A stretch of DNA of 64,000 nucleotides, taken from the UHGV virus genome UHGV-1352483; one strand, written 5' to 3'. Source of the stretch: a virus. Position 1 is the stretch's first letter, and each line of letters opens with the position of its first letter. A program made the translations under genes and the position numbers. Below the pieces are notes generated by a model. The model saw only the letters and a list, made by a program, of their open reading frames with translations, was not told the origin of the DNA and ran no database searches. This document shows, piece by piece, positions 1 through 63,404 of this stretch.

Positions 1-3000
1 CTGAGGATATTACAAGAGAGGATGTTGAAGATAGTTTTCAGGAGGAACTGGACTCTGGTGCACTTGAAGAACATGAAAGAGAGTATTGGCAAATAGGACA
101 GAGACAGATATCAGCAAGGTCAAGCTTAAGTGGGGAAATAAGAAGAACCTTTGAGAGACTGAAAGCAGTTGATTCTGATGGAAATCCCATTAAGGATAAA
201 TATGGATTCGGGTTTGATACTTTTGTAGATGCAGGAACTGCTGTAAATGGTATCCTTGATTGGGTTAAGGAAGCTACCACCATGAAAGAAATGGAGGATA
301 TTCTTAAAGAAATGGCTCCTTCCTATCCTTGGTTGAATGCTATTCTTGATAAGATACAGGATGAGCCTTTCAGGTCTCAGTTCTTTCAGAATTTCAGAAA
401 GGATTTTACCCAATACAGCATTATTACTGTAGAATATGATGAAAAAGGAAACAGGAAATATGTGACCAATATCATTAATACCAAAGGGGCTACAAAGACT
501 ATATTGGATAATGTCCAGACTGTATTTAAAGAAGGTCTTATGCCTAATCTTATTATCCCTATCAAAGGGGATATAGAAGGAAGGGGAAGAGTAAATACTG
601 ATAAGGTTGAACAGCTAAAGGAACTAAGAAACAGTATAACTTCTAAGTTAAGGGATGCCTTTACCAATCAAAGGGTATTCCGTACTGCTATCAATAATGC
701 TGTTCCTGATATTACTTCCTTACTTAACCAAATAGGCATAGAGGTTACTCCTGATTCTATAAGGTCTGCCCTTAGCAAGGATGCTTACTTCAAGCAACTT
801 ACAAGTGCTAAATCCACTAAGATACTTAATGAAGTCTCTTATTTATTAGACACCTTACTTGATAATAAGGATAATCAAACTTACAATCCTCTCGAGAAAG
901 GAGCTGAAGGCAATATATATGGAAACTATCGTAATATAGTCAGGGAGTTATCCAGATATATACAGGACAGCATAGAATCTTCAACATATGAGAATGGCAA
1001 GATGCATTATTCATTTGTTACTCCTTCATACATGGGAAAGCTAATTCTTAATCTGAAAGATGCTCTTGGAAACAGAGATAAGTTCAGGGATTTCATGCAG
1101 GAAAATTATGGCAAGTATAGATGGTTCAAGGATGGTAATACATGGAATAATGAATGGTTACAGCTCATAAATGATGATACAAATATGAGACAGGCTCTGG
1201 AGCATAAGGTACAGTTATCTTTTGATAAAACTCCCTATACTGACTTGAGTGAAGTAGGATATACTCTGTCAATGATGAATGAATACTTCTATGATAAAGC
1301 AAAGAAATACGCATGGTATAGAGTACCTATTCTATCAAACAAACCTTCATCCGAGTTCATAAAGTTCAAGAGATATAGTGGTAAGAATTATAAAAGAAAC
1401 ATTACTGCTGGTCTTAAGAAAGTCATGAATCAGGAGATATTAAGAATGAAGACTGCTTTGGAAAGAGCATCCAATCCTGATATTGAATCAATCTCTAACT
1501 TCGATATAAGTAAGAAGGTTCTCAATAAGAATCCTAAACTTGCTGAGAAGATAGCAAATAAGGAAGTATTGACCATTGATGATTTGGTAAAGGATGGAAA
1601 ACTTGTTCTTGAAGGCAGTGGGGCTGAATTCAAATTCCTTAGTGCCTTAAATCAAAATATCATCAACAAGGATGAACTTGGAATGATGATTGTTAATAAG
1701 CTCAATGGAATTGAAGTTGATGAAGTAGCCTTTGATACAGCTTTCCAATATGCTGTTAACTCCTACATGAATGCTATGGTAGCTTCTGAAATGAGACAAT
1801 GGGGAGAGATAGGATTATTTGATACTGAAACTATCACTAAGTATGTAAAGGGTAAAAAGGAAACTGAGGAAAGGTATAAGTATATTTCACAATTTGGCAA
1901 GACTGATGAGGAAATTCAGGGTGCATTGGAAGAATATATATGGAATGATATGTTTGCTACAATTAATATAATTGAGCTTACAGCTACAGACCTTGCATAT
2001 TACAAGAATGTAGAAGACTTCCAAAAGAGGTATGCACAGGTTCATTCTCCTGCAATGAGGTTGAATACTGAGGCTAAAGATTCTAAAGGTGCTCTTTACT
2101 CAAAGGATGGAAAAACAAGAACTATCTATGTTGCTGATAATATAGTTGTTTCTGAAATCATTCCTAATGTGGAGGCTGTACTTAATAATAAGATTGATTC
2201 TATAACAAACCCTACTGAAAAAGCTCATATGAGAATGATGAAGGACTTGATAATTTCTTCATTTAAAGGAATAAATGTAGCTGACGCCCAAGGTTATTCT
2301 TCCCCTACTTCTTATAGAAAGAAAATGGGAATGAGTGGTAAATGGGATGATAGTATGGAAGAAGCTTATGACAGAATTAAGAAAGGAAACTTCAATGTTA
2401 ATGACCTGGGAGTTGTATGGCAACCACTTAAGCCTTTTGTATATTCTCAGATAACTAAGGAATCAGGAGCAGAATCAATGGTTAACCTTAAAGTTCCTGT
2501 TCAGAATAAGAACAGTGAATATCTTCTTATATTAGCTGATGCTATTACAAGAGGAGGAAATAAGGTAAACAGGCTTACTGCTATCTTTGATTTCATGGAA
2601 GATTCTGCATATGATGGCAGGATATCAGAAAATGGTAAGGTAATCAAGGAGGGTACTTACAATGGTATAGGAATTGATACAGTGCAATTTGAGTCCTCAG
2701 TTAAATCAGGTAAGATGGGAGTCATTGATATCAACGACCTTGAATCTTATGAAGATATAAAGAGTGTACTTAATGAGGCTACTTATTTTGATTCAAGTAA
2801 AATGGAAGTAGAAGAGAATGGAATGGACAGATATAATGACCAGTATATTCACACTATTCCTTTTGAAGACTATGGAATACAGCAGGAAGTGCCAGCCCAC
2901 TTGATTGACCATAATCAGCTAATGGGTTCTCAAATGAGAATATTAAGTATAAGTGACATTACTCCTGGTACTATATTCAAGATAGGAGACAGGGAAATGA

Positions 3001-6000
3001 AGGATGCTGAACTTGTAGACACTTATCAGAAGCTGATAGCAGACAATGTAAGGGACAGTTTTGATAAACTTATGAAAGCCCTTAAGATTGAGGGAACTAA
3101 AGTCGAAAGGAATCAGGCTTTGTCAAAGTTACTTACAGAAGCTATTCAGAAAGACCAAAGGTATGGAGCTGATTTACTCAGAGCATGCTCATTAAATGAG
3201 AATGGGGACTTTGTAATTCCACTAAGTGACCCTATACAATCTGTAAGGATTCAACAACTGATTAATTCTATAATCAAGAGTAGAATCAATAAACAGACTA
3301 TTAAGGGTGGGCCGGTTGTTCAGGCTTCTGTATTTGGACTGTCAGATGATTTAAATATCAGATGGAAAGATAAGAAAGGTAATCTTTTGAAAACAAGACA
3401 GGAGTTTATGAATGAACAAGGTGAGAATTTCACAGATGAATCCTATAGCAAGTATGTACAGGACAATCAAGACTCTGTAGCTTACTTTGAATGTTATATG
3501 CCAATTCCTTCTTCTGCACTTGAGCAGGCAATGACAAAGGCTGATGGCTCAATTATGTCTATTGAAGAGGCTGTTAAGGAAGGTATAATTCCTGATGAAA
3601 TGAGAAAGGCAATAGGATATAGAATCCCTACCGAGGATAAATACTCTATGGCTCCCTTATATATCAAGGGTTTTCTACCTAAAGCAGCAGGAGAAGCTAT
3701 AATGCTTCCTAAAGAAATAACCCTATTAAGTGGTTCTGACTTTGATATTGATAAAATGTATGTAATGCTAAAAGAATTTCAAAGGAGAGATACTACTAAC
3801 TGGGGATTACTTAAGAAGGATATTTTAAAGAATATACCAGAAGGAGTAAGAAAGAAAGAAGCAATAGATAAGCTTGATATAGCTATTGATATGATTAGAA
3901 ATGGCAATATCTCTTTTGAAGAAGAGAGCTTTGAAATGTCTGTCTTTGATTATTATCAAGACCATTTGAGCAGATATAATAGATTTGAGTTTATTCAGAA
4001 AGGAAGTGATAACATAGGAGAAAGAAACAATCAGATATTTGATTTACAGTGGGCTGTACTTACTAATGCAGATACAATGGATAAGATGTTCAATCCAGGT
4101 TCATTTGATGTACAGAAGAAGAGTGCAAGAATCATTGAGATTCTGAAGGCTACTAATAAGTATTCATATGAGGACTTATCCAAGATGAATCTGAACCAGC
4201 TTGATGAAATCTCAGAATCTACATCAGGAAGGAATATAATATTTTCTACAACCCAAGCATATTTCCATAAACAGAATATGACAGCAGCTAAGTTGATTGG
4301 TATATTTGCTAATAATAACACCAGTCATGCTTTTCTTTCCTTGCAGGATATATACCTTAAACCAGGAAAAGATTATAGTTTTACATTTAATGGAGTAACT
4401 GTAAGTGATTCTGAGAATAATAAGATTGATGCTTTGGTAGGAAAGGATGGTACTTTGATTAGTAAAACCATTGCAGGATTCCTAGCAGCCTCTGTTGATG
4501 CTGTAAAAGACCCTGTATTGAACTTTATGAATCTTAATACATTTACTGCTGGTTCTGCAATGACTTTAGCAAGGCTTGGATTTGACTCTGACAGTATAGG
4601 AATGTTACTTACCCAACCAATAATTGAGAAAGTGACAAGAGAATACTTTAAGAGGAACAATGAAGGATATGCTTCTGCTGATGATATTATACAGGAGGAA
4701 CTCAATCTCTTGCAGGAAGTTGAAGGTATAGATTATAGAAGATTGAAGAAGGATTTGGTTAATACAGATTTTACAAAAGAGGAATTGTCTAATGGTATAA
4801 CGAAAGGGGATATGGGAACTGAATTCCAAGTTAGGGCATTATTGCTCTTTCAGAACTTAGCTACAATATCTCAGGATTTAAATACCCTTACTTTCCTTAC
4901 TAAGTTTAATTCTGTAACTAATGCAGTAGGCCCTATGATTGCTGATACCCTTGTTATGAGGGAAAGGTATAATAAGTTCCTTGATAAGATGGAAACTAAT
5001 CCATTATTCAGTGGAAATGCTGCAAGAGTAATAGATAATTCTCCTATACTTGAATCATTCTATGATACAACTGTATCGGATATGGGGGCTTCAAGAAGAA
5101 TATTTGAAGGGTATTTTCCTCATTATTCCAGTGCTTTTTCTACTATACTTGATAGATTAAGACAGACTACTAAGGCAAACTTAGACAGTAAAACTATCAA
5201 TAAACTGGCTAATGACTTTATCTTATACAAACTTACTATTGGAGACAATCCTGTTCTTGATTCAAATTATCAGGTAAGGAATGAATTTATAAATGGGTTT
5301 GTAGAGAGATTCAAAAAAGAAGCATCAGGTATTATAGATAATGATTTGATAAAGGTCATTACTTTAAAGGGAAGGGATAGTAAATGTCCTGTTCCTACAC
5401 TTGAGGCTAAGACAGGCGGTTATACTATTGATGTACAGGAAAGAGTTAAGGATGGTTGGAGTACATTGATATCCAATCCTGCTACGAGGAAACTTGGAGT
5501 AGAATTATTCTTCTATAATATGTTCAGGAGCGGGTTCAGCTTCAGTCCTAAAACATTTATGCACTTGGCTTCTGTAGATGTCAAGCAGGCAATAGAAGGA
5601 TATGTGGAAAATCTTAGGAATCCTGAGTTTAATGATTCGTCTGTTATAGCTGATGAATTCCTTAATCAGTATCGAAGAAACCATACTCAGGACTTCAGGA
5701 TTGTACCTAAATTCTCAGAGAATAAATATGTTAAAGTTACTGAATCAAAGAGTGTAAGTAAGGAGAAGATTATTACCTTTGCATTTAATAAGAATAAGGA
5801 AGGGATGAACAGTATTATTGTAAAAGACAGTAAGGAAGGAACTGTTTATGCCCCTGTTATTACTTATAATGATAGAGTATATATGAATCCTGTTGATGAT
5901 GGCAGTTCAGTAAGTTACACAGAGACTACTTCTCTTGGAAATCCTAATAACTTCCTGGAATATAATGCTGGTGAAGGTACGGGAATAAAATCTGTAATAG

Positions 6001-19987: not shown

Positions 19988-20095
19988 GTTATATCATTTT
20001 GGTTACAAAAGTAACTAATCTTTTTTACTTATCCAAACTATTATATAAAAAAGTAGCGGACAGATAAATTATTAATTTACCTACCCGCTATTTCA

Positions 20096-26518: not shown

Positions 26519-26615
26519 AAATTTATTTATTAGTTAATAACTAAAAAGTCCTGCAAATATAAGTATTTAATCTTATATAAGCAAGACTCTTAACATTTTA
26601 TTAATAAAGTAAGCA

Positions 26616-33029: not shown

Positions 33030-33145
33030 ATATTTCTTCTCCTACTTTTTAAATTCTTTTGCAAATATACTTAGAAAACTGATAGCCTACAACATGATAA
33101 ATAAGACAGTTATTATGCTGTAATAAGATTAGTTAGTTTCTATAT

Positions 33146-34820: not shown

Positions 34821-35540
34821 TTATTGAGCAGGAGTATCTCCACTGCTTGCTGTTCTGCCATAATAGGCTCCACAAGCACATGGTGAACCCATATAACCCG
34901 TTATAGTTGGACTATCAGGAAGGCAAAGAACTCCCTTGATATTCTTGCAATCAAGCTTATCTACATAGTTAATGATTCTCTCATCATTAAATGCAGCAGC
35001 AGTCTTAGCAGCAGCAATCTCACATTGGATTAACTTATCCTGATAAGGTCTGATAGCAGCATTAATGGCTACCTGAGCTTTCAAATCAGCTAATTCCTTT
35101 AAGATACTGTCGTCTCCGTCCCTTTGAGATTTATACAAGTTGAAAGCATCTTGATTCTGCTTTGCACTTAATATATCAAACCCGTCTCTTGTTGATTTAT
35201 ACAAACCAAAGTCTGCATCAATCTGAGATTTATATACACCAAATAACTCTTGGTCTAAGGTTTGCCTATCCTGGAATCTCTGGTTCTGTTGGGTCAAAGC
35301 CCAATTATAAAGACCACCTTGTAAAGCAAGAGTATCCTCACATCCTTTTTCCCAAGCTTGGAATGCAGTAGGAGCATTTACACCATTGGAATATCCTTCA
35401 ATACCATTCACATTGATATTGGTAGAACCTCCACCAGTTAATCCCCCACCAATGCCTCCTAAACCAGCTCTTCTTGTACCAAATAAAGCCCAAGCACCTA
35501 ATGCAGTACCTATTATCATTATCTTCATATAGGCTTGCAA
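34821..35540 (-). CDS. Secreted or membrane-anchored repeat protein (239 aa).
   Basis: N-terminal hydrophobic segment and a Gly-rich tract. It has internal repeats (GVYKSQIDADFGLYKSTRDGFD / NLYKSQRDGDD) and a Cys-rich C-terminus. Confidence 0.65.
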   Translation of the reverse strand: MQAYMKIMIIGTALGAWALFGTRRAGLGGIGGGLTGGGSTNINVNGIEGYSNGVNAPTAFQAWEKGCEDTLALQGGLYNWALTQQNQRFQDRQTLDQELFGVYKSQIDADFGLYKSTRDGFDILSAKQNQDAFNLYKSQRDGDDSILKELADLKAQVAINAAIRPYQDKLIQCEIAAAKTAAAFNDERIINYVDKLDCKNIKGVLCLPDSPTITGYMGSPCACGAYYGRTASSGDTPAQ

Positions 35541-35576
35541 GACCTATACAGTTCTCTTATGAACTTCTTTATATTA

Positions 35577-36293
35577 CTATAAAGTTGAGACTATATCTTC
35601 ACCTATATTATTATAGGGTTCCCCATTTCCATTACCATCAGCTTGTAATGTACTCTCTTTCGAGATAGTCGTTGAACTTTCCTTATACTTCCATTTATAC
35701 CCTAATGCAGTTCTATAATGTCTTCCTGATGGGGATACATACCCCCTGCACACTTTTACTATTTCTGAGTTAGCTCTTGGCTTTCCAAAACTCTTTCCAG
35801 CCTCTAGAGCAGAAGAGTATTCAGCTAATTCTTCATCAGTTAAAGGGTCTAACTTAATGACAGGTTTACTATTAGCTTCCTGTATAAGTTTCTTAGTTTC
35901 TTCAGTGTGTCTTCTTCCTTTAAAAGGATTATCAGTCAACATTCTAATTCTGCATTTTTCTACTTGTTCAGGAGTCAGATGATAACCAGGAGAGCCTTCC
36001 CCTCCAAGGGACATATTATATCCCTTCTTAAAAGAGTTATATAATCCTATATAATAAGTTTCTAAAACATTCAAAGCTTGGGAAGCCTCTTCTATACTAG
36101 AATACTCATGTTTTTCAAGAATCTCATATTTGAAATTCCTAGGTCCATACTTCTTTCTGGCATTATCTATCTTATATCCTGCATACTTTTCTCTTGTAAG
36201 AAAAGCATGTTTCCGTTCATATTCATTAACGGTCTGTCCTATATAAACTTTGTTACTTGGACTGGTGTACTTATAAACTATTCCTATAATCAT
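35577..36293 (-). mobile_element. Free-standing GIY-YIG homing endonuclease gene (I-TevI/Seg-like).
   Basis: The N-terminus MIIGIVYKYTSPSNKVYIGQT matches the GIY-(10-11)-YIG motif. A downstream NUMOD3-like motif (GRRHTEETKKLIQEANS) is present. It interrupts the structural gene block and has its own upstream non-coding region. Confidence 0.75.
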
Positions 36294-36430
36294 ATTATAT
36301 AATTTTAAAGTACAAAGGTATTGAATATTATTGGAACATACAATGGTATAATTGGAACATTAAGGCTTAGCTGCTGATTGTCCTCATATGAGGAGTTTCC
36401 AGCAATTAAGGGAATTTATACTGAGCATAA

Positions 36431-36565
36431 TTATAGTTTACCCAGTGTCAAACCAGCATTAGCTTTACCATTGATGTCTCTTCTGTTGTTATAACCGTTA
36501 CCATATCTTTCACAGTATTCAGCAGCAGGAATCTCTTTTACTTTTTCCTTTTCAATAATTTCCAT
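36431..36565 (-). CDS. Possible small ORF (44 aa) upstream of the HEG.
   Basis: Encodes MEIIEKEKVKEIPAAEYCERYGNGYNNRRDINGKANAGLTLGKL. It is below the ORF-track cutoff and is supported only by an intact frame in an otherwise non-coding 450-bp region. Confidence 0.25.
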   Translation of the reverse strand: MEIIEKEKVKEIPAAEYCERYGNGYNNRRDINGKANAGLTLGKL

Positions 36566-36747
36566 AATAGCAATTTTGAAATTAATTTAATCATTTTATT
36601 CTCTCTGTAAGCTTACAAAGAACAAAGTTATATAAGATTCCATTATATACCAATTGCTACTTAAAAGCCCCATAACTATTTAAGTTACAGGGCTTTAATT
36701 TAGCAGTATCTTACTAGGGTACTTTATGTATAAAAAAAAAAGCAGCC

Positions 36748-37098
36748 CTATTGAGCTGCTCTATCATGTTTATCAAATACTTCTCTGATTTTCTTATAAA
36801 TATAACCTATTAAATAGGCATCTACTTCATCATTGTCTGCTTGAGGTTCATACCCTATATAGTCCCATAAGAAGTTCTTTACATGCTCTGCCTCATGTAC
36901 TATACTGTTTTCTCCTTTAACTGATGAGATTCCTACAATAGCATTACCATGTTCAAGGTCAGCTAATGTAGTTCCAGGAACACCGTTCCCTTTAAATATG
37001 TGATTTACTTCCTCCCATTTATCAAAGATTATAACTGTTAACTTATAATCGAATATAGGGATATTCATCCTCTTTTGTGTTATCATATTACCATACAA
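36748..37098 (-). CDS. Small HExxH zinc-metallopeptidase-like protein (116 aa).
   Basis: Contains VHEAEHV (HExxH) with a glutamate about 17 residues downstream, a gluzincin-like spacing. The terminator hairpin GCAGC-N8-GCTGC plus T10 overlaps its 3' end. Confidence 0.55.
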   Translation of the reverse strand: MYGNMITQKRMNIPIFDYKLTVIIFDKWEEVNHIFKGNGVPGTTLADLEHGNAIVGISSVKGENSIVHEAEHVKNFLWDYIGYEPQADNDEVDAYLIGYIYKKIREVFDKHDRAAQ

Positions 37099-39405: not shown

Positions 39406-39724
39406 CTTATTAATTTGGTGTAGTATGAATATTCTAAAAATAGTGGGAAGAATGAAGAGCGTTACACTAACTTAACCGTCCAATCTATAAACTCATCAAA
39501 CTTTACCCACGATGCAAAGATACATACTATATCTTAAGTATGCAAGTAAGTAAATAGAATAGTTATTCCTAATAACTAAATCCTTTTGATTACTACATTC
39601 CTACGAAATGTTTCCCAAGTTACAGAGGAGCCCGCTAACATAAGACTCTTAACCAAATATCTCCTAATTGGTTCAGTACCATTATTTATCCTAGAAGCCA
39701 ATATATTAGTATCTATAACATTTA

Positions 39725-51500: not shown

Positions 51501-51573
51501 ATATTATATCTTTTTAATTTTACTTGCAAAAGTAAGTAAAAACATTCTATTATACAACCCATTAAGAACTTTA

Positions 51574-57342: not shown

Positions 57343-57411
57343 AATATTCTGTTTGTTTTAATGTTACAAAGATAAGTATTTAATATGACATATGCAAGAA
57401 AAATGAGATAA

Positions 57412-57846: not shown

Positions 57847-57920
57847 GTTCCCCTGTTAGGAATCGAACCTAACCCCACAGATTAAAGGTCTGTTGCCTAC
57901 ACCTGTTTGCTACAGGGGAA
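57847..57920 (-). tRNA. tRNA, most likely tRNA-Lys (anticodon UUU), with a non-canonical C at position 33.
   Basis: In minus sense: TTCCCCT acceptor paired with AGGGGAA. Anticodon stem ACAGA/TCTGT with loop CCTTTAA. T-arm TTAGG-TTCGATT-CCTAA. The D-arm is imperfect. Confidence 0.6.
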
Positions 57921-58233: not shown

Positions 58234-58251
58234 ATTACTCCAATTTAATTG

Positions 58252-58323
58252 CTGGGATAAAAGGAATCGAACCTTTATCTCTTGATTAACAGTCAAGTGC
58301 ATAAACCTTCCAGCTATATCCCA
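58252..58323 (-). tRNA. tRNA-Asn (anticodon GUU).
   Basis: In minus sense: acceptor TGGGATA / TATCCCA. Anticodon stem CTTGA/TCAAG with loop CTGTTAA (U33, A37). T-arm AAAGG-TTCGATT-CCTTT. Confidence 0.7.
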
Positions 58324-58524
58324 ATAATAAAGGGGAAGTTATTACCTCCCCTATTTATAATCAAAAAAAAAAACTATGAGAAACAAATCAGTTTGAGGGA
58401 AAGAGAAGAACGAACTTCTAAGTATACCAAGTAGTAAAGGATACTCAATATACTCAAACCTATGTTACATTCCCTTGCCTGTTCAACGCTTTAAACAGGA
58501 CTTCCTAGAGACTAATATTATATG

Positions 58525-58598
58525 TACAAGGAGAGGGACTCCAACCCTCAACCAATGCCTTAGAAGGGCATTGCTCTATGCAGTTGAGCTATCCTTGC
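58525..58598 (-). tRNA. tRNA-Arg (anticodon UCU).
   Basis: In minus sense: acceptor GCAAGGA / TCCTTG(T). D-stem GCTC/GAGC. Anticodon stem ATGCC/GGCAT with loop CTTCTAA. T-stem GAGGG/CCCTC. Confidence 0.7.
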
Positions 58599-58774: not shown

Positions 58775-59324
58775 ATTATATTCTATTTAAAATGACTCTG
58801 CAAAGATATGTAAAATACTTGAATCCTGCAAGCTTTTTCCTGTTTATTTTTCATTCTCCTTTAAATATATCCTGTTATTCTAGGGGTATAATCAGTTAAA
58901 GGAATTAATTATAACCTCTGAATTCATACAAATTACCCAACAGGGTATAATATTAGCAAAGAGATTTTCATCCCATAGAATTCTTTTTAAACATTAAGCT
59001 GGAAACCAGATTCTTTTCTCTTATCTATAGAGAGACCCTGTCGGGCTCTTTTTCATCCGACAGACCTCACTGGAGACCAGTGAATCTTTATACTTAGCTT
59101 GAGACCCGTTTATATATTATTAGTTCTCACTCTTGTTATCCCTAGGATAGATTGCCTGTGCCCTACTAATGGTATCCGCTGCTTTCCCATGCTGGCTCTA
59201 TCAATCCCTTACTAGGTATAAAGGTTCTTATGTAGAAAATGAATGATAATATACAAGGAAATACTTGCTATTTTCTTTCAGAGGGCAAATATAAGTAAAA
59301 TAAATGACATATGCAAATATTGGC

Positions 59325-63310: not shown

Positions 63311-63382
63311 ATTCCCATAGTTCAACGGATAGAACGATAGTTTCCTAAACTGTAAATATGAGTTCGATTCTCATTGGGAATA
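63311..63382 (+). tRNA. tRNA-Arg (anticodon CCU).
   Basis: Acceptor ATTCCCA / TGGGAAT. D-stem GTTC/GAAC. Anticodon stem ATAGT/ACTGT (one G-U) with loop TTCCTAA. T-arm ATGAG-TTCGATT-CTCAT. Confidence 0.7.
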
Positions 63383-63404
63383 CTAACATTAAAACTATAT
63401 AACA

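Follow-up and report, generated by a model that had tools for sequence, protein, structure and literature searches.

A mobile group I intron with an I-TevI-like endonuclease gene very likely splits a gp61-like tail-protein gene in a crAss-like phage

A group I intron that carries a homing endonuclease gene very probably interrupts a tail-protein gene in the 64,000-nucleotide (nt) stretch of the virus genome UHGV-1352483 analyzed here (the window). The intron is 923 nt long, mobile and probably of the phage IA type, an I-TevI-like GIY-YIG open reading frame (ORF) is looped out of its P6 helix, and the gene that it splits is a homologue of gp61 of p-crAssphage (Carjivirus communis), annotated as 'putative tail protein'. 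The phage itself is crAss-like and is related most closely to the Steigviridae; within this part of the window every gene lies on the minus strand. A preliminary description of positions 35577-36747 had presented the same ORF as a free-standing endonuclease gene between structural genes, with a non-coding leader of about 450 bp. The exons, the intron and the ORF inside it are located as follows:

36440 to 36565, minus strand: exon 1 of the gp61-like tail-protein gene, 42 codons (intron-less homologues are contiguous over the junction in tblastn and in alignment)
35517 to 36439, minus strand: group I intron, 923 nt (partial Rfam RF00028 matches, exon junction, covariation)
35577 to 36293, minus strand: GIY-YIG homing endonuclease ORF, 238 amino acids, I-TevI-like architecture (PHROG, family profile, alignment)
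34821 to 35516, minus strand: exon 2 of the tail-protein gene, 231 codons plus stop (ORF list, protein alignment, DNA junctions)

Two Rfam group I pieces flanking the endonuclease ORF raised the suspicion that this ORF lies inside an intron and that the adjoining ORFs are two exons of one gene. When the joined product was used as a tblastn query, single alignments ran contiguously over the junction in cr111_1, cr85_1, cr106_1 and C. communis gp61, all of which are annotated 'putative tail protein'. The joined exons read ...NGKANAGLTLG/IIGTALGAWALF (the slash marks the junction; also written ...INGKANAGLTLG/IIGTALGAWALF), and this motif is identical, in protein and in DNA, in three intron-less phages (cr111_1, cr106_1 and C. 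communis). Bajarodcaudo virus 1 has a diverged version of the motif with the split point at the same position, again in both protein and DNA. Removal of the intron therefore restores an uninterrupted gene that is collinear with the intron-less alleles, and the predicted spliced product of 273 amino acids (...AGLTLG/IIGTALG...) is like the intron-less homologues. The intron-less site, whether of the cr111_1/cr106_1 type or synthetic, is written ...GCTGGTTTGACACTGGGTATAATAGGTACTGCATTAGG... The preliminary description had proposed aligning the region with relatives that lack the insertion; this alignment did define the boundaries, but at 35517-36439 rather than 35577-36747.

The 5' splice site is placed after U36440, which forms a U.G pair in P1, and the 3' splice site after G35517, the omega-G. 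An alternative 3' splice site after G35544 (..CUGUAUAG/GUC) would add nine amino acids (VLQAYMKIM) found in no homologue, and G35517 was adopted. Public databases already contain the identical phage, in contigs of up to 97,624 bp, and record exon 1 (44 amino acids, DAR32415.1) and exon 2 (235 amino acids, DAR32414.1, with a start inside the intron) as separate hypothetical proteins. The 44-amino-acid ORF (36431-36565, minus strand), also listed as a possible ORF in the preliminary description, is real, but it is exon 1 of the host gene running two codons into the intron before a stop. Starts of exon 2 inside the intron (a mechanical TTG at 35540 and the database start MKIM...) are artefacts.

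The two Rfam RF00028 pieces, both on the minus strand, flank the ORF: model positions 60-142 (P4-P6) match at 36321-36404, and model positions 1-253 (3' core) match at 35567-35753 (31.1 bits, E = 2e-5). A scan of the whole window with Rfam found only this one intron. The elements of the ribozyme are as follows:

36421 to 36431, minus strand: internal guide sequence (P1/P10 pairing, compensatory change in Dulem virus 41)
36361 to 36414, minus strand: 5' half of the ribozyme core (Rfam positions 60-142, pair counts)
36409 to 36414, minus strand: 5' strand of P3
36399 to 36404 with 36372 to 36377, minus strand: P4
36381 to 36394, minus strand: P5 hairpin, containing the palindrome CCTCATATGAGG (36382-36393)
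36361 to 36365, minus strand: 5' strand of P6
35517 to 35685, minus strand: 3' half of the ribozyme (Rfam 31.1 bits, covariation, blastn to annotated phage group I introns)
35681 to 35685, minus strand: P6'
35666 to 35670 with 35589 to 35593, minus strand: P7
35654 to 35665, minus strand: P7.1
35630 to 35650, minus strand: P7.2
35619 to 35624, minus strand: P3'
35602 to 35617, minus strand: P8
35567 to 35584, minus strand: P9 with a GUAA loop
35551 to 35564, minus strand: P9.1
35527 to 35549, minus strand: P9.2
35517, minus strand: omega-G

In P1, the guide GCUCAG (36421-36426) pairs with exon 1 CUGGGU (36440-36445), such that U36440 is paired with G at the splice site; over 10 sequences, 88% of the P1 cells are paired, with double changes in three of the six pairs. 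In P10, the guide AUUAU (36427-36431) pairs with exon 2 AUAAU (35512-35516), and this helix covaries, since Dulem virus 41 combines the exon sequence AUAGU with the compensatory guide ACUAU. All tail-gene introns end in ...UG before AUA or AUU. The intron ends in a repeat of the sequence with which exon 2 begins (GAUAAUG/AUAAUAGG, 35512-35523, minus strand), hence, on base-pairing grounds alone, the P10 guide AUUAU could find a second partner just within the intron.

For the pair counts, 12 introns were aligned after removal of the P6 loop and were read against a hand-drawn structure comprising P1, P10 and P3-P9.2; the set consisted of the same intron from phages with endonuclease homologues together with related DNA polymerase introns. 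Across the alignment 92.8% of cells were paired, a value that is inflated for the window's own row because the structure was derived from it, versus 39-46% when the partners were slid by 1-3 columns. Double-sided changes were seen in 38 of the 72 pairs, versus 4-11 in the slid controls. The core helices P3, P4, P5, P6, P7 and P7.1 were 98-100% paired, and P8 72.6%; compensatory changes occurred in P3, P4, P5, P6, P7.1, P7.2, P8, P9 and P9.2, and P7 and P9.1 were invariant.

Helices P7.1 and P7.2 are present between P7 and P3', as in the td intron of T4, and show double changes in 4/4 and 5/6 pairs, respectively; their presence at this location suggests the IA type for the intron. The window's intron lacks P2, and P2 hairpins are found at the loci L017, L228, L229 and L230. 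By blastn, introns in 474 phage records share 69-77% identity with the 3' core, among them Intron_gpI features of Staphylococcus phages and td introns of Bacillus phages. A core-pattern scan of IMG/VR matched more than 120 contigs of many phage types; the pattern is generic for phage group I introns. A scan of IMG/VR with the 15-mer ATGCTCAGTATAAAT returned 90 loci, only one of which (L176) passed the intron core-motif screen; four other contigs of crAss-like size, on inspection, were chance matches.

The 238-amino-acid ORF of the preliminary description is real, and begins in the P6 loop and runs into P9. Its assignment to the GIY-YIG/NUMOD3 type held at the level of the family but not by single-sequence Pfam searches, which stayed below gathering scores (GIY-YIG, PF01541, 16.8 vs 22.6; NUMOD3, 18.5 vs 20.4; NUMOD1, 20 vs 22.8). 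The ORF matched PHROG 314 'homing endonuclease' (E = 7e-29) and had 439 homologues in a large protein collection, several of which were named 'group I intron endonuclease' by their source; an identical protein, named 'intron associated endonuclease', is present on 44 contigs. A single-sequence search of the PDB gave no meaningful match to the endonuclease, and a family profile was required. With this profile, the only meaningful PDB matches were the catalytic domain of I-TevI (1MK0/1LN0, E = 2e-4) and its DNA-binding domain (1I3J, E = 1.2e-3, profile positions 137-197). The latter match indicates a separate C-terminal DNA-binding domain joined by a linker, and a weak NUMOD3 match accompanies it. 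Residues G4, Y7, Y17, G19, R27, E78 and N93 are invariant in a 21-sequence alignment; of these, Y7, Y17, G19, R27, E78 and N93 align to 1MK0/1LN0 as the GIY tyrosine, the YIG tyrosine and glycine, and the equivalents of Arg27, Glu75 and Asn90. The conservation of the GIY-YIG residues, which the preliminary description had named as a check, is thus borne out.

Homology of the endonuclease stops near residue 204 (...GYKWKYKE), and the functional protein probably ends there. The last ~35 codons of the ORF (SSTTISKESTLQADGNGNGEPYNNIGEDIVSTL; 35577-35685, minus strand) are a translation of P6'-P9. Stop positions vary among the C-terminal tails of the homologues, and similar tails recur because the ribozyme RNA is conserved. 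Judging from the sequence, we infer that the protein is an active endonuclease that would cleave near the insertion site.

Among related genomes the intron is polymorphic at a single site, as expected of the mobile, endonuclease-carrying insertion that the preliminary description had envisaged. The window, Dulem virus 41 and loci L010-L016, L228 and L229, from diverged or metagenomic phages, carry it at one common site. Five relatives lack it (cr111_1, cr85_1, cr106_1, C. communis and bajarodcaudo virus 1), and so the gene is not universally present in this context. Between the window and its relatives, identity is 72-82% for the intron, 66-72% for exon 2 and 62-74% for the flanks; the higher identity of the intron fits constraint, spread, or both. 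When 4.5 kb around the locus was compared by megablast with 50,697 phage records, the matches were confined to short patches in crAss-like phages. In cr128_1 the match covered the 5' portion of the endonuclease ORF and its upstream region, and in cr106_1 the region around exon 1; the final ~140 nt of the ORF region matched within the DNA polymerase genes of cr118_1 and cr53_1.

Three further sets of loci were noted. Independent ~2.0-kb deletions were seen in the ~96-kb genomes of cr128_1 (L001, MT774392; 3883-4260) and L015 (2501-3490). Both deletions start inside the endonuclease ORF, and the 3' half of the intron, exon 2 and the next two genes are gone. The cr128_1 deletion (2009 bp) has a junction without clear microhomology, and tblastn found no tail-protein match anywhere in the cr128_1 record; the L015 deletion (~2.03 kb) lies at a 13-nt microhomology and fuses the endonuclease to a DUF7841 gene (P0007, 329 amino acids). 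Either the deleted genes are dispensable in these two phages, or the genomes are defective or misassembled. More distant phages (L017, 2400-3320; L230, 1840-2990) carry a related intron with a GIY-YIG ORF in the same conserved motif, with a splice site apparently 5 nt upstream, GGAU/UAGGUAUAGC rather than GGGU/AUAAUAGG, a placement made from reading frame and P1 pairing only and ambiguous in L230. Lastly, a core 81-83% identical to that of the window splits a DNA polymerase gene, annotated as two 'DNA polymerase' coding sequences, at L007 (cr118_1; 2380-2900), L008 (cr53_1; 2380-3300) and L009 (MT835588). The polymerase intron of cr118_1 holds only a 48-amino-acid ORF, and that of cr53_1 holds an HNH endonuclease.

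Upstream of the endonuclease ORF, the P6 loop contains two elements of possible regulatory significance:

36313 to 36343, minus strand: intron-internal promoter-like element, TTG-N20-TACCTTTG (composite pattern scan, conserved position)
36326 to 36339 and 36347 to 36360, minus strand: two 14-nt direct repeats, TAT(T/A)ATTGGAACAT (repeat-family comparison)

The promoter-like element lies 27 nt upstream of the endonuclease ATG and overlaps repeat 2; in 10 of 13 related loci such an element is found at -49 to -56 from the ATG. The composite TTG-N20-TAnnTTTG is the sigma-ABfr consensus of Bacteroidota (Bacteroides type; PMC7366714). It occurs 13 times in the window against 1.33 expected, a count reached by none of 100 shuffles, and 12 of the sites are on the coding strand, mostly just upstream of ORFs. 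Sites on the minus strand include 20006-20036, 26554-26584, 33062-33092, 39515-39545, 51527-51557, 57367-57397 and 59286-59316. Together, the 13 sites look like this phage's set of host-type (sigma-ABfr) promoters, and the internal element would presumably be used as one of them. A scan for sigma-70 promoters gave nine sites in the window versus 8.1 expected, which is uninformative and fits Bacteroidota promoters.

The direct repeats reported by the preliminary description (36330-36360) do exist, and the full copies are the 14-nt units listed above. They are 21 nt apart, overlap the internal TTG-N20-TAnnTTTG promoter, and read AUGUUCCAAU(U/A)AUA in the RNA sense. In reverse complement, (G)GTATAATTGGAAC, they resemble the exon junction and homing site GGGT/ATAATNGGTAC. 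For 11 of 14 repeat copies from eight introns, the best of ~130 registers was -4 to +12 across the insertion site, with 12/16 and 10/16 matches for the two copies of the window and 14/16 for L010. I-TevI of T4 binds an operator that lies over its own promoter and is 15/20 identical to the homing site, and thereby represses itself (PMC2988022). By analogy, the repeats may be an operator, made of inverted mimics of the homing site over a Bacteroidota-type promoter, through which the endonuclease represses its own transcription; of the roles considered for the repeats this is the most plausible, but it is a tentative proposal that falls short of being probable. If it is true, the I-TevI autorepressor logic has been kept in a distant system, the crAss-like phages of Bacteroidota, with the operator duplicated and its copies two helical turns apart.

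In the mechanism that we propose, transcription of the tail-protein gene would start from the gene's own promoter (36623-36653), and the intron RNA would fold into P1-P10. External guanosine would attack after U36440, omega-G 35517 would enter the G-site, and P10 would guide ligation of the exons to give the 273-amino-acid protein; splicing activity itself is thus predicted from the sequence. The internal promoter (36313-36343) would make an endonuclease transcript without the 5' half of the ribozyme, which is likewise missing from the endonuclease transcripts of T4 introns (PMC2988022). The endonuclease would then cut intron-less alleles of co-infecting relatives near ...CTGGGT/ATAATNGGTAC..., repair after the cut would copy the intron in (homing), and the two repeats over the internal promoter would serve as the autorepression operator, as in T4 I-TevI.

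Several observations weigh against this reading of the locus. The matches to RF00028 (31.1 and 21.9 bits) do not reach its gathering threshold of 50, and at E < 0.01 the model missed the ORF-poor relatives L007 and L008, such that the model alone certifies no membership. Given that the ORF splits the match and that even ORF-poor relatives are missed, the low score reflects the sensitivity of the model. The structure used for pair counting was drawn from the window sequence. None of 500 shuffles reached the observed pairing values, but because the 12 introns are related, the shuffles overstate significance, and the slid controls provide the fairer comparison. A collection of 15 billion proteins, searched as a proxy for assembled spliced transcripts, does not contain the exact spliced protein, a result that is uninformative either way. 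Without the TTG part, TAnnTTTG occurs in the window at the expected frequency (73 occurrences vs 72.9 expected). The similarity of the repeats to the homing site was not significant in a 20-nt test confined to the window (13/20, equalled by 45% of shuffles); the anchored-motif comparison described above is more telling than this test, but is built on related sequences. Finally, I-TevI would cut at a CNNNG motif 23-25 nt upstream of the insertion site, and on direct reading this motif is absent there.

How well do other explanations account for these data? A free-standing GIY-YIG cassette between two independent structural genes, with its own non-coding leader, would agree with the three genes in the public records of the identical phage (the 44- and 235-amino-acid proteins and the 'intron associated endonuclease'), with the promoter-like element that the ORF has to itself, and with the fact that free-standing GIY-YIG genes such as the seg genes are common in phages (PMC2988022). 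This explanation is extremely unlikely, since the flanking ORFs together encode a single protein that intron-less relatives have in one piece, covarying ribozyme helices bracket the endonuclease ORF, and relatives without the endonuclease also conserve the outer portion of the 'leader'. We also consider it very unlikely that the element is a decayed, non-splicing remnant, with a tail gene that is inactive or expressed as fragments and an endonuclease that is a relic. Such a remnant would be consistent with the sub-threshold Rfam score and with the deletions in cr128_1 and L015, which run from inside the endonuclease over exon 2 and downstream genes and imply that the locus can degrade and may be dispensable. 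However, the window retains every core helix intact, and 12 diverged introns share a conserved U.G pair at the 5' splice site, omega-G, P7 strands and J8/7 sequence. The endonuclease ORF has kept its full length, its catalytic residues are invariant, and it is found in identical form on 44 contigs; both exons are in open frame and 66-72% identical to relatives.

A narrower alternative concerns only the direct repeats, which might act as RNA rather than as an operator. In one version, they contribute the P6a helix that closes the ORF-containing P6 loop, with UUCCA paired to a conserved UGGAA just before P6' (35689-35693); in the other, they are a second guide-like element in antisense pairing with the exon junction. 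On the transcribed strand the repeats are reverse-complementary to the junction, which makes their RNA complementary to GGGU/AUAAUNGGUAC, and the UGGAA upstream of P6' is invariant in all tail-gene introns. However, UGGAA lies within conserved coding sequence (YKWKYKE), hence its conservation needs no RNA role; there is no covariation, as the variable exon position (+6, A/T/C) changes without matching changes in the repeats; and the fixed spacing to the -7 box, together with the overlap with the -33/-7 spacer, fits a role at the DNA level. Taking both versions together, we consider an RNA role of the repeats rather unlikely. The preferred explanation of the locus remains a mobile group I intron in the tail-protein gene.

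The region upstream of the intron holds elements that lie outside it:

36732 to 36762, minus strand: intrinsic terminator of the upstream gene (36748-37098), GCAGC-N8-GCTGC plus U10 (terminator scan, sequence read)
36664 to 36697, minus strand: second terminator-like hairpin, AAAGCCC...GGGCTTT (fold, region z = -4.5; alignment)
36623 to 36653, minus strand: promoter-like element of the tail-protein gene, TTG-N20-TAACTTTG (sigma-ABfr pattern, position conserved in relatives)
36606 to 36617, minus strand: palindrome TGTAAGCTTACA in the 5' untranslated region/start region of the tail-protein gene (alignment of eight sequences)

The supposed ~450-bp non-coding leader (36294-36747) is therefore a composite. 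It includes the 5' half of the ribozyme (36361-36439), the coding exon 1 (36440-36565) and then flanking sequence: the 5' untranslated region, promoter and conserved terminator of the host gene (36566-36697), and beyond these the terminator of the upstream gene. Both terminator-like hairpins of the preliminary description exist, at 36664-36697 and at 36742-36759 followed by U10 (36732-36741), but neither is part of the insertion. The terminator scan returned no site other than the GCAGC-N8-GCTGC hairpin with its U10, which overlaps the stop codon of the upstream gene and is outside the mobile element. An Rfam trpB-motif returned over the terminator region (E = 0.81, 26.7 bits vs 59) was dismissed as chance. 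The inner hairpin has a stem of 13-14 bp and a 5-nt loop followed by a U-run, and is kept with compensatory changes in relatives; as these include the intron-less cr111_1 and cr106_1, it is part of the phage backbone. The tail-gene promoter is also found in intron-less relatives. The palindrome TGTAAGCTTACA, between this promoter and the start codon, is kept in six of eight sequences, with and without the intron; L016 has TGTAAACGTTTACA instead, with the symmetry retained, and Dulem virus 41 is without the palindrome, which is a candidate for an operator or an RNA hairpin of the 5' untranslated region. Judged by these alignments, the hairpin at 36664-36697, the promoter and this palindrome belong to the phage backbone and the tail-protein gene. 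The 12-bp palindrome CCTCATATGAGG that had been located at 36391-36402 is genuine, but it lies nine bases away, at 36382-36393, and is the P5 helix of the ribozyme. That the insertion has regulation of its own is supported by the promoter-like element upstream of the endonuclease ATG; the hairpins belong to the backbone and the palindrome to the ribozyme.

Elsewhere in the window we noted four tRNA genes (Lys-UUU, Asn-GUU, Arg-UCU and Arg-CCU; 57847-57919, 58251-58323 and 58524-58598 on the minus strand and 63311-63383 on the plus strand). No suppressor tRNA was seen in the window.

Group I introns that carry GIY-YIG endonucleases are textbook elements of phages, and the finding, though real, is ordinary and leaves the current understanding of group I introns and homing endonucleases unchallenged. 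In public records of this phage and of its relatives, the two exons and the endonuclease stand as three unrelated genes. Recognition of the intron restores a conserved virion/'tail' protein of 273 amino acids, and its splice coordinates are transferable to relatives. It also brings a structural-gene intron to those known from crAss-like phages, beyond the groups with reported introns, and offers a testable case of regulation by an intron-internal promoter and operator in Bacteroidota phages. Moreover, one ribozyme scaffold appears with different cassettes: GIY-YIG here, and HNH or almost no ORF in the polymerase introns.

The closest parallel is the td/I-TevI system of T4 (also the nrdB and nrdD introns). 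Both are phage group I introns with P7.1/P7.2 and a P9-P9.1-P9.2 tail, both have a GIY-YIG ORF looped out of P6 that overlaps the 3' core, and both encode a two-domain endonuclease, as judged here from the 1MK0/1LN0 and 1I3J profile matches. For T4, an internal promoter of the endonuclease under a homing-site-like sequence is documented (PMC2988022), and the promoter-like element and repeats of the window would be its counterpart. Unlike td, the window's intron lacks P2, its host gene encodes a virion/'tail' protein rather than an enzyme of nucleotide metabolism, and it is known here from sequence alone. The host phylum is Bacteroidota and the promoter is of the TTG-N20-TAnnTTTG form, not a T4 late promoter; the putative operator is duplicated and in inverted orientation. 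The endonuclease differs from I-TevI in having no CNNNG at -23/-25 and in being too diverged for a single-sequence PDB match. The seg genes of T4 belong to the same nuclease family and follow the same homing logic, but they are intergenic and need no splicing, whereas the ORF described here is inside a gene-splitting ribozyme.

Among crAss-like phages, self-splicing introns with endonuclease ORFs have been described as fragmenting core genes of Crassvirales, and the alpha-gamma genomes were said to lack such insertions (Yutin et al., 2021; PMC7886860). The window's intron shares a related core (81-83% identity over ~145 nt) with the introns that split the DNA polymerase genes of cr118_1 and cr53_1, but it lies in a gp61-like tail-protein gene of a phage nearest to the Steigviridae. 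Beyond the crAss-like phages, the introns of Staphylococcus Twort-like/Kayvirus phages and of Bacillus phages (td, AR9/PBS1) are in other host genes, their endonucleases include LAGLIDADG and HNH types, and only the core can be aligned; over the P7-P9 core, they are 69-77% identical in nucleotide sequence to the intron of the window.

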